A stretch of 64,000 bases of DNA. Origin: Elusimicrobiaceae bacterium. Lineage in GTDB: Bacteria; Elusimicrobiota; Elusimicrobia; Elusimicrobiales; Elusimicrobiaceae. The stretch is taken from the NCBI GenBank assembly GCA_028700325.1, contig JAQVSV010000001.1, forward strand, positions 28,085 to 92,084. The letters run 5' to 3'. Positions 3,102 to 23,264 of the stretch are shown here, piece by piece. Positions within the stretch are counted from its first letter, which is position 1. Each line of letters begins with the position of its first letter. The notes below the pieces were generated by a model. The model worked only from the letters and a program-made list of their open reading frames with translations. It searched no databases and had not been told where the DNA came from. Position numbers and translations under genes: made by a program.

Positions 3102-3983
3102 TTAGTTATAGCCGAGGTCAATATCGCCGGACGTGGTGGTCACGGTGACTTTCAGCCGCGAGCTCATGTCCAGCATGGTTTTCTGGCCGGTCACCGTGCC
3201 GGTTACGGTTTCCCGGTAAAAAGCCAGTTTGGCGCCGACCGGGAAATCCAGCCCGATATGCCCGCTTACGGAAGCGGCGGTGATTTCTCCCGCCGGAGGC
3301 GTGGCAGCCCAGTCCAGATCCACCGGCCCGCTTACCGTTTCAATCCGCGCCGGGCCGGAAAGCAGACCGGTTATGCCGCCGCTTTTCGTGCCCAGATCCG
3401 CCCGGCCTTTGGTGTAAGCCACATGGATATCGCCGGAAATATTCCGGGCGACCACGGCGGACCCGGAATAAATTTTTATCGCGCCGCTGACCGAGCCGGC
3501 GTCAATGTTTCCGGCGGCGCCGGTTACCATTATGTCGCCCGACACGGTTCTGACCGCAATGTCGCTTCCTGCCCGCACCGTAATGTCGCCGCTGGTGGAG
3601 GCAAGATCGGCGCGCGAGCCGATTCCGGAAACGTCTATGAACCCGGAAACGGTTTTAAGCGCGGGCTCGACCGCCGGGTCGGGAACGGTTATATGAACCT
3701 GCGCGCGGCAGGCGCCGCCTGAATCGGGAACCGGCGCTATTCGCGCCGCCAGTTCGCCGCGCTCGAGCGTTATGCTGAGCGTGCACAGTTTGTCGTCGTA
3801 CCGCGATACTTCCAGACGAGCAGGGCCGGTTTCCACGTCAAGGTCAATTCCGCCCGATACGGTCGCTATATTCAGGGTTTTAATTTCGCCAGGCTTGTAT
3901 TGCCTGGTCACAGTCGTTTCGGCCGCCATGGCCGGCGCGAGCGCGCAGCACGCAAAAAACAGCACGGCATGTTTACAGTTCAT
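3102..3983 (-). CDS. DUF4097-like beta-strand-repeat protein with signal peptide
   Basis: N-terminal MNCKHAVLFFACCALAPAMA. Repeated short units end in SG(D/A/G)I (VSGDIMV, ISGDIHV, TSGDITV, TSGDIDL), as in DUF4097 putative adhesins. Confidence 0.55.
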   Translation of the reverse strand: MNCKHAVLFFACCALAPAMAAETTVTRQYKPGEIKTLNIATVSGGIDLDVETGPARLEVSRYDDKLCTLSITLERGELAARIAPVPDSGGACRAQVHITVPDPAVEPALKTVSGFIDVSGIGSRADLASTSGDITVRAGSDIAVRTVSGDIMVTGAAGNIDAGSVSGAIKIYSGSAVVARNISGDIHVAYTKGRADLGTKSGGITGLLSGPARIETVSGPVDLDWAATPPAGEITAASVSGHIGLDFPVGAKLAFYRETVTGTVTGQKTMLDMSSRLKVTVTTTSGDIDLGYN

Positions 3984-19181: not shown

Positions 19182-20060
19182 ATGAAAATAGCCGAACTGC
19201 TGAAAACGCGAAAAACGTTCTCGTTCGAGTTTTTTCCGCCCAGGACGCCGGAAACCACCCGTCATCTGTTCGACGCGCTGGAGCTGTTGCGGGAACTCCG
19301 GCCGGACTTTGTGTCCGTAACGCATTCGCCGTCCGGGTTCGGCACTCTGAAGACGGCGGCGCTGGCCAAGCTGATACGGGACCGGTTTGATCTTAACCCG
19401 ATGGCGCATCTGGCCTGTATTACCCATACCCGTGCCGAGATAGAAGGCATTGTGCGCGAGCTTGACCGCATCGGCATAGATAACATTCTGGCGCTGCGCG
19501 GTGATTATCCGCCCGGCTACGCCGGCTCATCGGCCGATCCCCGCGGCTATAAGCACGCACACGAGCTGGTGGCGCAGTTGCGGCAAATCTCGTCAGCGTG
19601 TATCGGAGTGGCGGGGTATCCCCAGAAGCATCCCCAGGCGGCTACGCTTGAGCAGGATATAAAACATCTCGGGCGGAAAGTCGCCTGCGGCGCGGATTTC
19701 ATAATAACACAGCTGTTTTTTATCAACGCCGATTACTTCAGTTTCGTGGAGCAATGCCGGTCGGCGGGTATTACTGTGCCCATAATACCCGGCATTATGC
19801 CCGTAACCGGCTACAGCCAGCTGGAAAAGTTTTCGGAAATGTGCGGCGCTGCCATTCCGGCTGTTTTGCGCACACGGCTTGAGCCTGTTAAAAACGACGA
19901 CGCGGCTGTTGCCGCCCGCGGAGTGGATTTTGCCTCGGAGCAGTGCCGTCAATTGCTGGAAAACGGCGCGCCGGGCATACATTTCTATACGCTTAACAAA
20001 TCACGCGCCGCGCTCGCCATTCTGAAAAAACTTAAAGACACCGGCCTTATTTCCAATTGA
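19182..20060 (+). CDS. metF: methylenetetrahydrofolate reductase
   Basis: FSFEFFPPRTPE start block. ALRGD, AGYPQKHP and ITQLFF motifs are typical of MetF. 292 aa. Confidence 0.9.
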   Translation: MKIAELLKTRKTFSFEFFPPRTPETTRHLFDALELLRELRPDFVSVTHSPSGFGTLKTAALAKLIRDRFDLNPMAHLACITHTRAEIEGIVRELDRIGIDNILALRGDYPPGYAGSSADPRGYKHAHELVAQLRQISSACIGVAGYPQKHPQAATLEQDIKHLGRKVACGADFIITQLFFINADYFSFVEQCRSAGITVPIIPGIMPVTGYSQLEKFSEMCGAAIPAVLRTRLEPVKNDDAAVAARGVDFASEQCRQLLENGAPGIHFYTLNKSRAALAILKKLKDTGLISN

Positions 20061-20302
20061 TATCCGGTTAGTGCGGGGTTAAATGATATTAGCTTGGTTG
20101 CCGATGCTATTCGATTCTGGTTATCATTTGGTAATCGCTTATTCGGACGTATAGTGTAAAACTCGAATTGCTCGGTTGCGGATGTTTGGAAAAAGGTTAT
20201 TATGAGGGTTGTTGTAAAATGGTTATCTTTGTATTTTTTGCTTAATATTTAATATGCAAAATGCATTAAACTTATAATTGTTTTTAATTGCGAAAAAAGG
20301 GA

Positions 20303-20331
20303 TTGACAAAACGGAGTAATACTGGTAAGAT
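20303..20331 (+). promoter_or_regulatory. strong sigma70-like promoter candidate with A/T-rich upstream (UP-like) region
   Basis: TTGACA (20303-20308), 17-nt spacer, TAAGAT (20326-20331). The ~240 nt upstream is about one third G+C by my count, against a G+C-rich genome. Confidence 0.5.
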
Positions 20332-20337
20332 AATTAT

Positions 20338-20650
20338 ACCGTTATAGTATTAACGAATTGCCGTGAAATGAGAAATACAGTTGTGGCCTGCGTTAACGGC
20401 GGAAATCAGCGTGCATGACAGCGAATGCGCCGGCCTGACAGTACTGATCATATCCAAAAAGCAAAGACATCTCGCACCGCAGCGGTTAACGGTTTTTATC
20501 GAGATACTATAACGGTTCGTTTTGCAACAGTAGCCGCGCAAGCGGCTATCTGTCGCCCGAGCCCCCGGTCCTCTCCTCCCCCTCACACTACCGGGGGTTC
20601 ACTTTATAAGAACGCTCCCCCGTAAACAGGGGAGCGTTCTTATTTGCGCT
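20338..20650 (+). ncRNA. candidate structured ncRNA (~310 nt; 6S-like rod plus C-rich-loop hairpin; class unknown)
   Basis: It is bounded by the promoter above and the terminator at 20609-20641. No credible ORF is present. A 12-bp closing helix pairs CCGTTATAGTAT (20339-20350) with ATACTATAACGG (20504-20515). Nested helices and a GNRA hairpin AGCCGC-GCAA-GCGGCT are also present. Confidence 0.45.
20609..20641 (+). terminator. rho-independent terminator
   Basis: AAGAACGCTCCCC-CGTAAACA-GGGGAGCGTTCTT is followed by ATTTGCGCTTT. Confidence 0.65.
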
Positions 20651-20956
20651 TTACGGATGAAGCGGCAGGCACTGCCATCCGTTTCACGGTGTGCGGCGGT
20701 TTTAATGTTTTGACGGCGGCTTTTCAGGCGGAGATATCAGGTATGGCGGGTGGATGGCCTTCGGGCCGAAAGGCTGTCCGCGCGTAATATTTCAGAGGCT
20801 GGTTTTGGCTGCTTCTAGGTGAGGGCTGCGCCGCTATGCCGGCCCCCCGTCCGTCATGCGGAAAAAACGGCGGATTTGCGGCGGGTGAAGGCGATTGTAT
20901 GCTCCGGAAAATTCCCGCTCTCAAGACGGGGGGAGGCGGCGCGGATGCCGGGCGGT

Positions 20957-22198
20957 TCAGTGTTTCAGCTTAAGCGCCGCGACGGTTTCAACGTGTTCCG
21001 TATGGGGAAACAGGTCGAACGCTTCCAGTCGCGTTGTTTCATATGCCGCCGCCAGTTCCGCCAGATCGCGTGCCAACGCCTTGGCGTTGCACGATATATA
21101 AATCATGTTTTCCGGACGTATGGCGAGCAGTTGTTTAAGGGCTTTGGGGTGCAGGCCTGCGCGCGGGGGATCAATCAGAAACACGCTGTCATGCGCGAAC
21201 GCCGTGCCGGATTTCACCTGTTCCGTCAGCCAGTCTTCGGTTCTGGCGCAGACAAACCTGACATTGGCGATCGAGTTGAGGGCGGCGTTTTCACGGCCGT
21301 CGCGCACCGCGTCGGGCACGAATTCAACGGAAACTATCTCGCGAACCCTGTCGTGGCAGGCGAACCCCAGCCCGCCGGCGCCGCCGTACAGATCGTAGAG
21401 CGTGCCGCAGTTCAGTTCCGCCACCAGTTCCCGGATCCGGCTGTACAGCCGCTCCGCCGCGCGGGTGTTGGTCTGCAAAAACGAGCGCGGCGTGATTTTA
21501 AACGAAAGCGTCAGTTCGGGCGCGCCCTCCGGGCCGATAAAAAATTTTTCCGCTATATATTCCGGCCCGCAGAGGTGCGTTATGGAGTCCGCCTGTGCGG
21601 TATCGGCCGCGGCGTCGGTTTCGCCGTATAAAACCGCCGCGTCAGCCCAGACCGACCGCACCGCGTTCACAAAGCCCTCTTTGTCAAACCCGCCGCTTTT
21701 CAAAAACAGCACCGCCATTTTTCCACCGGTGTTTTTTGCCTGGCGCACCAGCAGGTGCCGCAGCATGCCGGTGTGAGTCTTCGCGTCGAGATAGGGGGTC
21801 TGCGTGGCCTGCGCCCACCGGCGCACGGCGGAGAGCAGCGCGCCGGAATCGGGCGAGGAGATGAGGCATTCGGTCAGGTCGAAAGCGCGGTCCCAGCGGC
21901 CTTTTTCTTTCATGCCGAACCGGTCTTCGAAATATTTTGGGCTGTCGGGCGTGGTTTTGAGGCGGTCTATCTGGCGGCTGAACGAAAACTCCATCTTGTT
22001 GCGGTAATACAGGATATCGGGCGACGGGGTTATCGGAATCTCGTGCGGCCAGAACCGGCCCAGCAAGCCGGCCAGCGCCCGGATTTTCAGCGTCAGCTGG
22101 CGCTGATACGGCACGTCCTGGCAGGCGCAGCCGCCGCAGACCTTGTAATGAGCGCAGAGCCTGGCCATTTCGCATGGCGGAATCGCCGCGTCACACAT
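20957..22198 (-). CDS. RumA/RlmD-type RNA (uracil-5-)-methyltransferase
   Basis: I place the start at ATG 22198 (MCDAAIPP..). Cys cluster C..CGGCACQ. SAM motif LYDLYGGAGGLG. C-terminal DLFPHTEHVE. The start overlaps the ychF stop (ATGTGTGA). The longer ORF to 22303 is rejected. Confidence 0.78.
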   Translation of the reverse strand: MCDAAIPPCEMARLCAHYKVCGGCACQDVPYQRQLTLKIRALAGLLGRFWPHEIPITPSPDILYYRNKMEFSFSRQIDRLKTTPDSPKYFEDRFGMKEKGRWDRAFDLTECLISSPDSGALLSAVRRWAQATQTPYLDAKTHTGMLRHLLVRQAKNTGGKMAVLFLKSGGFDKEGFVNAVRSVWADAAVLYGETDAAADTAQADSITHLCGPEYIAEKFFIGPEGAPELTLSFKITPRSFLQTNTRAAERLYSRIRELVAELNCGTLYDLYGGAGGLGFACHDRVREIVSVEFVPDAVRDGRENAALNSIANVRFVCARTEDWLTEQVKSGTAFAHDSVFLIDPPRAGLHPKALKQLLAIRPENMIYISCNAKALARDLAELAAAYETTRLEAFDLFPHTEHVETVAALKLKH

Positions 22199-23264
22199 TG
22201 AAGCGGAAGAAGCAGATATCGCCGTCGCGGATGATGTAGTCTTTGCCTTCGGATCGGACAAGCCCTTTTTCCTTGAGGATTTTTTCGTCCCTGTATTTTT
22301 CAATATCCTCGAACGAATAGACTTCCGCGCGGATGAACCCGCGTTCTATATCGGTATGGATTTTGCCCGCCGCTTTCGGAGCCGGGGTGCTGACCGGGAT
22401 GATCCACGCGCGCACTTCGTCTTCCGAGCCGGCGGTGAAAAACTCCATCAGCCCCATCAGCCGTTTGGCTTCGATGACAATGCGTTCAAGCCCCGTGTAT
22501 TCGCTTCCTATTTCGGACAGAAACACCGCTTTTTCTTCCGGCGTGAAATCCGAAATTTCCGCTTCCAGCCTGATGCACAGGTCAAGGAACCCCGCATTGC
22601 GGGATTTGGCGAACGCGGACATTTTTTCAAGCAGCGCGGCGTCTTTCTTCTCCGCGGTGTTGCCGACGTAAAGCACCGGCTTGGCGGTCAGCAGGAAAAG
22701 ATCCTTGAGTTCGCCTTCGCCGAACGACAGCGCCGATGCGGGGTTTCCGGCGGCCAGGCAGTCGCGTATCCTGGTGTAAACCGCCTGCCGGGCCAGCGCC
22801 TGCTTGTTGCCGCTTTTAACCGGGCCGGTATTGCGTTCGATGAGGCGTTCAATCATTTCCAGATCGGCCAGCATCAGCTCGGTTTCGATGATCTCCACGT
22901 CGCGCATGGGGTCTATCCCGCCCATGACGTGCACCACGTCCCCGTCTTCGAATAGACGAACCACATGGATGACCGCGTCCACCTCGCGGATGTTGGCGAG
23001 GAATTTGTTGCCAAGGCCTTCGCCTTTGCTCGCGCCTTTGACCAGGCCCGCTATGTCCACAAATTCGATTGCGGCGTTGACTTTTTTGGGCGGCCTGAAG
23101 ATATCGAACAGGCGGTCGAGCCGTTTGTCCGGCACGGGCACGATGCCCACATTGGGGTCAATGGTCGTAAAAGGGTAGTTGCAGGCCTGCGCGCCGGCGT
23201 TTGTAAGCGCGTTGAACAGCGAGGATTTGCCTACGTTGGGAAGTCCGATAATGCCTATTTTCAT
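22191..23264 (-). CDS. ychF: redox-regulated ATPase YchF
   Basis: [24 protein letters not shown]-like C-terminus ending [12 protein letters not shown]. 357 aa. Confidence 0.92.

Follow-up and report, generated by a model that had tools for sequence, protein, structure and literature searches.

The analyzed DNA (64,000 nt; referred to below as the window) is located on contig C60 of the 2.2-Mb genome of an Elusimicrobiaceae bacterium (G000). It contains metF (19182–20060, plus strand; Pfam MTHFR, E = 5e-91) and, in convergent orientation, a Pfam-confirmed gene encoding a TrmA/RlmD-type methyltransferase (20957–22303, minus strand). An AT-rich island followed by a structured RNA had been predicted between these genes from the nucleotide sequence. 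According to our analysis, this region very likely harbours a genuine gene, not described before, that encodes a regulatory RNA of ~310 nt. The features identified in the region are as follows:

20061–20302, no strand assigned: AT-rich spacer upstream of the promoter, ~30% G+C; its A-tract (GAAAAAAGGG) abuts the −35 hexamer
20303–20331, plus strand: sigma-70-type promoter; −35 TTGACA (20303–20308), 17-nt spacer, extended −10 TGgTAAGAT (20323–20331)
20338–20646, plus strand: predicted primary transcript, ~308 nt; start at A20338 (7 nt past the −10 hexamer) and end both inferred
20338–20350, plus strand: 5′ strand of helix P1, ACCGUUAUAGUAU; exact complement of 20504–20516
20351–20503, plus strand: hypervariable interior of the 5′ domain (the “rod”), ~150 nt in the window
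20504–20516, plus strand: 3′ strand of helix P1, AUACUAUAACGGU; identified by folding and covariation
20517–20526, plus strand: single-stranded linker ending in UUUGCA, which is kept in all three full-length homologs
20527–20553, plus strand: P2 hairpin with GNRA tetraloop GCAA (20538–20541)
20559–20600, plus strand: P3 hairpin; 11-bp stem and 20-nt loop CCUCUCCUCCCCCUCACACU at 20570–20589 (putative seed)
20606–20648, plus strand: intrinsic terminator; GC-rich stem CGCUCCCC/GGGGAGCG extended by AUAAGAA/UUCUUAU, then UU

Promoter, terminator and predicted fold

Analysis of the G+C profile (200-nt windows) showed that the G+C content falls to 0.30–0.32 at 20100–20400, compared to 0.593 for the whole window, and a recount over 20101–20340 reproduced the predicted value of 76 of 240 nucleotides. 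The near-consensus promoter TTGACA-17 nt-TAAGAT described at the end of the island was recovered by a promoter scan (−10 TAAGAT at 20326–20331, TG-extended), in which four promoter-like sites were detected, compared to 1.3±1.1 in shuffled sequences. The strong terminator described at the opposite end was seen in the fold as a 15-bp hairpin (20606–20643; core CGCUCCCC/GGGGAGCG) followed by the U-rich tail UUCUUAUUU; a simple terminator scan missed this hairpin solely because the tail is counted by that scan from the end of the maximal stem.

In silico folding of the plus strand yielded a structure with an energy of −120.5 kcal/mol (z = −6.3 relative to shuffled sequences). A fold of the same quality was obtained for the minus strand (z = −6.4), so that the strand is not given by fold energy alone. 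The sequence 20339–20350 (CCGTTATAGTAT) is the exact reverse complement of 20504–20515, which corresponds to the predicted 12-bp closing helix (13 bp when the pair 20338/20516 is counted). The GNRA hairpin AGCCGC-GCAA-GCGGCT was confirmed within 20527–20553, as was the hairpin that presents a 20-nt C/U-rich loop (CCTCTCCTCCCCCTCACACT at 20570–20589) on an 11-bp stem. Thus, the AT-rich island, promoter, closing helix, GNRA hairpin, C/U-rich loop and terminator of the original prediction are all in place. Two short open reading frames (ORFs) overlapping the RNA (20350–20586, minus strand; 20425–20625, plus strand), previously judged to be non-coding, do not match any Pfam family.

Conservation of the RNA in related lineages

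Immediately 3′ of metF, and in its orientation, a homologous unit was found in three other Elusimicrobiaceae lineages: (i) G001, a metagenome-assembled genome (MAG) labelled Elusimicrobiaceae, which belongs to the same genus and is the only congener among the species compared (MetF 63% identical), (ii) L033 (assembly GCA_964506195.1; MetF 72% identical), and (iii) L032, a Logan contig (MetF 74% identical) in which adapter sequence is reached before the 3′ domain. The Nextera transposase adapter CTGTCTCTTATACACATCT forms the end of two Logan contigs (L032:4036–4054 and L224:2716–2734); because of this adapter read-through, the two assemblies stop exactly where the small RNA (sRNA) would continue.

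In all four lineages the RNA is preceded by a promoter of the form TTGACA (TTGGCA in one)-17-TGnTA(A/G)nAT, with an A-tract in front of it and identical spacing from the 5′ end of the RNA. The conserved block starts at AUACCGUUA in each of them, and the first ~28 nt (consensus of the 5′ end: AUACCGUUA(U/A)(A/G)G(U/C)A(U/G)UAACGA) constitute the second most conserved block. The AT-rich spacer also occurs at the same place in 4 of 4 lineages; it is 240–500 nt long and can be aligned only in its last ~45 nt (A-tract and promoter). A terminator hairpin with a U-tract is present in three lineages, and those of G001 (GGGAGCCUU-GAAAA-AGGCUCCC-UUUUUAUUU) and L033 (GCGCCCCUCUCG-CUAA-CGAGAGGGGCGC-UUGCUUUUC) occupy the same place with unrelated sequences. 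The element therefore has its own promoter and terminator and contains no conserved ORF, as is typical of the sRNA class.

Since the unit always lies directly downstream of metF and on the same strand, it might instead be mainly a 3′ untranslated region of the metF transcript, with a role in stability or termination or released by processing, and not a separate gene. The scan found no terminator in the DNA from the metF stop codon to the promoter, so read-through is possible. However, the extended −10 promoter is kept at a fixed distance in four lineages, while the 240–500 nt before it do not align, and metF genes of other genera lack such a tail. These observations make a metF 3′-end element improbable.

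Comparative alignment, proposed originally as a check for covariation, revealed compensatory changes across lineages in both P1 and P2. The inner four pairs of P1 read GUAU/AUAC in the window, GCAU/AUGC in L033 and GCAG/CUGC in G001, with two covarying positions. P2 has the form AGCCGC-GCAA-GCGGCU, GGUCGU-GCAA-ACGACC or GACCGC-GAAA-GCGGUC in three sequences, among which 4 of the 6 inner pairs are changed on both sides with 100% of cells paired; 4 of 500 shuffles did as well. Only three complete sequences (the window, G001 and L033) were available, and the covariation statistics are therefore thin. The P3 hairpin is nearly invariant: 42 of 43 nt are the same in the window and L033, against a metF DNA identity of 62–71%. 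Its loop has the form CCUCUCCUCCCCC(C)UCACACU across the complete homologs, the sole difference being a run of five C residues (C5) versus six (C6) in G001. The mean unpaired probability of the loop in the fold prediction is 0.95 (0.41 for the entire RNA); this invariant 20-nt loop thus constitutes a conserved, accessible, single-stranded putative seed. Two changes were found in the P3 stem, and both are G-U/A-U switches that pair on the plus strand only.

These G-U/A-U switches, together with the promoter and the U-tracts following the terminators, identify the plus strand as the transcribed one. The RNA is non-coding: none of the reading frames across the conserved part survives the C5/C6 indel unshifted, and Pfam gives no match for the local ORFs. 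The conservation of the element with compensatory changes in three other lineages places it above chance.

The organization of the DNA downstream of the terminator differs between the lineages. The sRNA terminator is followed by a nitroreductase gene in convergent orientation in both G001 and L033. Its ortholog in G000 (82% identical) is located on the same contig at C60:8687–9178, ~39 kb distant, which indicates a rearrangement breakpoint right after the sRNA in this genome; in the window, the terminator and the methyltransferase gene are separated by ~300 nt of G+C-rich DNA (20650–20956) with no recognisable gene. The 3′ half of the sRNA, together with the nitroreductase gene, occurs again at the end of a second G001 contig (L004, G001:C171:3397–4936), where it differs by a few substitutions and an insertion of ~60 nt; two strains may thus be collapsed in the G001 MAG.

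The breakpoint immediately past the terminator, as well as the equally stable fold of the minus strand, would suit an element acting at the DNA level only, in which a conserved regulatory or recombination site is combined with a terminator serving both convergent genes and no functional RNA is made. Such an element would not account for the compensatory changes in P1 and P2, the one-strand G-U switches or the conserved promoter, and the most conserved part of the unit is a single-stranded loop; we therefore consider it very unlikely.

The distribution of the RNA was examined by several searches. A blastn search of 41 relatives detected it in G001 only. A covariance model of the 3′ domain (R1) applied to 145 genomes of the family showed that it is absent from nine other genera, and a second model (R2) applied to 401 genomes of the phylum identified no genus other than its own; on inspection, the weak hits of the covariance models proved to be GNRA hairpins, coding sequences or plain terminators. 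The sole other weak hit in G000 (C78:13540–13575, plus strand) is an ordinary terminator following a DnaJ/CbpA-like gene (GCCCCCGGU-UCACA-CCGGGGGC-UUUUU), which shares stem sequence with P3. Exact-pattern scans of genome and metagenome contigs returned the G001 contig plus chance matches, and the DNA downstream of metF in 16 other genera contains no comparable C/U-loop element. Judging from these genomes, the RNA is a young family, specific to one clade of uncultured Elusimicrobiaceae at about the level of a genus.

An Rfam scan of the window revealed no family at gathering score besides two tRNAs. In a permissive scan of 20000–21000, Atu_C7 (RF02501) gave the best score of the region (22.2 bits, E = 0.0076, over 20518–20645), accompanied by microRNA noise on the terminator. 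Membership in Atu_C7 was rejected: the score lies far below the gathering threshold of 45 bits, most of the match is due to the terminator, and the structure does not support the alignment of the 5′ part.

Variable 5′ domain and comparison with 6S RNA

Conservation is lowest in the segment that P1 encloses, whose length is 12 nt in G001, ~150 nt in the window, 218 nt in L033 and at least 178 nt in L032. The interiors of L033 and L032 are A+C-rich (~67%); that of L033 contains six ACAGCA motifs and that of L032 five. At L033:4322–4399 (and L032:3897–3982), a degenerate CA-rich unit of 23 nt is repeated in tandem (3.4 copies, 76% matches); CA-rich repeats are absent from the window's copy of the RNA. 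A repeat or mobile element as the source of the interior was rejected, as no part of 20060–20660 has a second copy in the genome; the interior thus does not belong to the miniature IS-like repeats that occur elsewhere in this genome. Judging from the homologs, the P1 interior behaves as a fast-evolving expansion segment.

The original prediction interpreted the 5′ domain as a 6S-like rod of ~177 nt; an RNA of this type, with its internal bubble, would mimic open promoter DNA and sequester the RNA polymerase holoenzyme. The rod is of about the right size, its closing helix is present, and it resembles 6S RNA (RF00013) in length and in its internal loops. However, only the closing helix is kept among the homologs; the interior does not align, being reduced to 12 nt in G001 and largely unstructured and CA-rich over its 218 nt in L033. 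Furthermore, the best conserved 135 nt, which form the 3′ domain, lie 3′ of the rod, so that the 5′ and 3′ ends of the RNA do not pair with one another, unlike those of 6S RNA. With an unconserved rod and termini that are not joined by pairing, the RNA lacks what a 6S-type polymerase mimic requires.

In the Rfam searches, no 6S match was obtained at gathering score in the window or at E≤10 in 20000–21000, and RF00013 found nothing in the whole genome at E≤1. At E≤0.01, RF00013 gave no match in 31 genomes (G000 and 30 related Elusimicrobiales) and was positive in 5 control genomes. No 6S RNA of this clade is therefore recognised, which could be taken to favour the 6S interpretation; however, since the model is silent in the 30 relatives too, this negative result is no argument for the locus. 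A 6S RNA of the order Elusimicrobiales, if present, escapes the current RF00013 model. A housekeeping RNA such as 6S RNA should occur in all members of a family, whereas the RNA described here is confined to one genus. Overall, the 6S interpretation is extremely unlikely. Of the earlier reading, the structured, non-coding RNA of ~310 nt, extending from promoter to terminator on the plus strand and carrying an anti-Shine-Dalgarno (anti-SD)-like loop that is conserved in relatives, was retained, and the 6S-like rod was abandoned.

The C/U-rich loop, its predicted targets and related RNAs

The 16S rRNA of this genome ends in GGAUCACCUCCUUU. The P3 loop contains CCUCC, the exact core of this 3′ end, within CUCCUCCCCC, in agreement with the anti-SD-like character originally ascribed to it. 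Searches of the genome with tblastn, using Hfq (two queries) and CsrA (one query) proteins of E. coli and B. subtilis, returned nothing significant. Because the loop holds the anti-SD core, the architecture is like that of known sRNAs with C/U-rich loops, and neither Hfq nor CsrA was found, the RNA was interpreted as a base-pairing translational regulator. We favour, by a modest degree, an independent gene for a trans-acting base-pairing RNA of ~310 nt, restricted to this clade and always located just downstream of metF.

According to this model, transcription would start ~7 nt past the strong extended −10 promoter, which is preceded by AT-rich DNA, and would stop at the intrinsic terminator. 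The resulting RNA would consist of (i) a 5′ domain closed by the covarying helix around the expansion segment and (ii) a 3′ domain composed of the UUUGCA linker, the GNRA hairpin and the loop-presenting hairpin. The stable P3 hairpin would hold the invariant 20-nt C/U-rich loop open, and the loop (CCUCC and the C5–6 run) could then pair with several mRNAs at their G-rich ribosome-binding regions. Such pairing may block 30S binding or alter mRNA decay, without detectable Hfq, as for sRNAs with C-rich loops in other phyla.

Comparison with described sRNAs revealed several partial similarities. The cuckoo family comprises CcsR1–4/RSs0680a–d of Rhodobacter and alpha-r14/SmelC397/NfeR1 of Rhizobiales, and is defined by 2–4 adjacent hairpins (24–50 nt, loops of 9–27 nt) whose loops contain CCUCCUCCC, with variable stems and a fixed loop (PMC4615179). 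The RNA described here shares the anti-SD-like pyrimidine loop, in which CUCCUCCC represents 8 of the 9 nt of CCUCCUCCC, and its P3 hairpin (42 nt, loop of 20 nt) is within the size ranges of the family, with changes at two stem pairs and an invariant loop. In contrast to the 2–4 adjacent modules of the cuckoo RNAs, only P3 has a pyrimidine loop, and a large 5′ domain and a GNRA hairpin are added. Moreover, cuckoo RNAs are co-transcribed with a DUF1127 gene and occur in Alphaproteobacteria, whereas this RNA has its own promoter and is found in Elusimicrobiota, with no detectable Hfq and no match to the family in Rfam at E≤10.

RsaE/RoxS of Firmicutes are trans-acting RNAs whose unpaired C-rich regions are directed against G-rich ribosome-binding sites, with Hfq dispensable, and the targets of RsaE include folate/C1 metabolism (PMC6158497, PMC4409812). 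The adjacency to metF echoes this link to C1 metabolism, as an association only. RsaE/RoxS are ~100 nt long and carry several short C-rich motifs, compared to a single 20-nt loop in ~310 nt here, and no sequence or covariance-model similarity places the RNA in that family. The RNA represents a new family of a known functional kind. In a limited literature search, no report of a small regulatory RNA from Elusimicrobiota was found.

Candidate targets were sought by seed-and-extend scans of the whole genome and of translation-initiation regions. Several of the results obtained weigh against the base-pairing interpretation. The best genome-wide complements of the loop lie inside coding sequences (the MnmA C-terminus and an FtsW motif), and extended loop matches in G001 are not enriched (30, compared to 38 for a backwards-pattern control). 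In a two-genome scan of the 5′ regions of 1760 ortholog pairs (G000 versus 75% of G001; duplex energy ≤−18 kcal/mol in both), the real loop gave 14 pairs, compared to 6–18 with reversed or shuffled loops. In addition, the supporting covariation is drawn from the three complete sequences mentioned above, and all 20 loop nucleotides are fixed, including CACACU, which is more than an anti-SD seed needs; the loop could be a protein-binding site.

The main rival of the base-pairing interpretation is accordingly an RNA that titrates or delivers an RNA-binding protein, e.g. a KH-domain protein, ribosomal protein S1 or a cold-shock protein, through its pyrimidine loop or, in some lineages, its CA-rich repeats. 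The fixed non-anti-SD part of the loop and the lack of target enrichment over shuffled loops agree with such a role, and the L033 and L032 interiors, with their six and five ACAGCA motifs and the 23-nt tandem repeat, have the layout of multi-site sponges. Given the negative tblastn results for Hfq and CsrA, any partner would be another protein. Nevertheless, the repeats are missing from the RNA of the window, and the whole interior is missing in G001, so the CA-rich repeats cannot account for what is conserved. The locus has no link to any candidate protein, and the loop contains an exact anti-SD core, for which pairing is established in several families (PMC4615179, PMC6158497). A protein-binding or sponge RNA thus has a low, but not negligible, probability.

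Within the base-pairing interpretation, the best target lead is a gene encoding a 134-amino-acid, single-domain CheY-like receiver protein. This is the only ortholog pair with a tract of at least six G residues in both 5′ regions. Five lineages share its unusual ribosome site, CCGGGGGG(G)UGG, in which the tract comprises six (G6) or seven (G7) residues:

G000:C98, ~3140–3170, plus strand, gene start at ~3166; G001:C53, minus strand; L220–L223, ~370–403, strand not given: ribosome site of the CheY-like gene with the conserved G tract

The tract is G6 where the loop has C5 (G000 and the assembly of L033) and G7 where it has C6 (G001), although this correlation corresponds to a single evolutionary change and therefore also counts among the points that weaken the base-pairing case. 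A G7 tract is also present in the CheY-like gene of the ERR7015342/ERR7015393 lineage, for which a C6 loop would be predicted; its contigs stop short of the 3′ domain. As a predicted target, the CheY-like gene is suggestive at most. In several lineages its ribosome site can form a local hairpin, CCACC-GGGG-GGUGG, over itself.

A similar situation has been described for RepG of Helicobacter pylori, in which a C/U-rich loop in the terminator hairpin reads a homopolymeric run of G residues within the leader of an mRNA (PMC8295292). The predicted target with its G6/G7 tract tracking the C5/C6 run resembles that system, from which the RNA differs in that its loop is located in the penultimate hairpin. 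Poly-G tracts in the 5′ regions of this genome are not clearly enriched (10 observed, 6.6 expected). It could be speculated that the RNA, like RepG, senses homopolymeric G tracts, and that its C5–6 run co-evolves with the G6–7 tract of the response-regulator ribosome site, so that slippage in either tract would retune signalling; the hypervariable 5′ domain, which CA-rich tandem repeats have enlarged in part of the lineages, would serve as a second, lineage-specific sponge module. We regard this elaborate version as improbable.

The kind of RNA described here is well known and its clade is small, so that the finding, with function and expression predicted from the DNA, presents no conceptual surprise. 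The invariant anti-SD-like loop adds to the evidence that riboregulators with C/U-rich loops arose repeatedly across bacteria. The 5′ domain, which varies from 12 to 218 nt inside one conserved helix, represents expansion-segment evolution in a bacterial sRNA. To our knowledge, the phylum Elusimicrobiota is almost entirely uncultured, and the loop, together with its candidate target, may offer a testable handle on post-transcriptional control in these bacteria.

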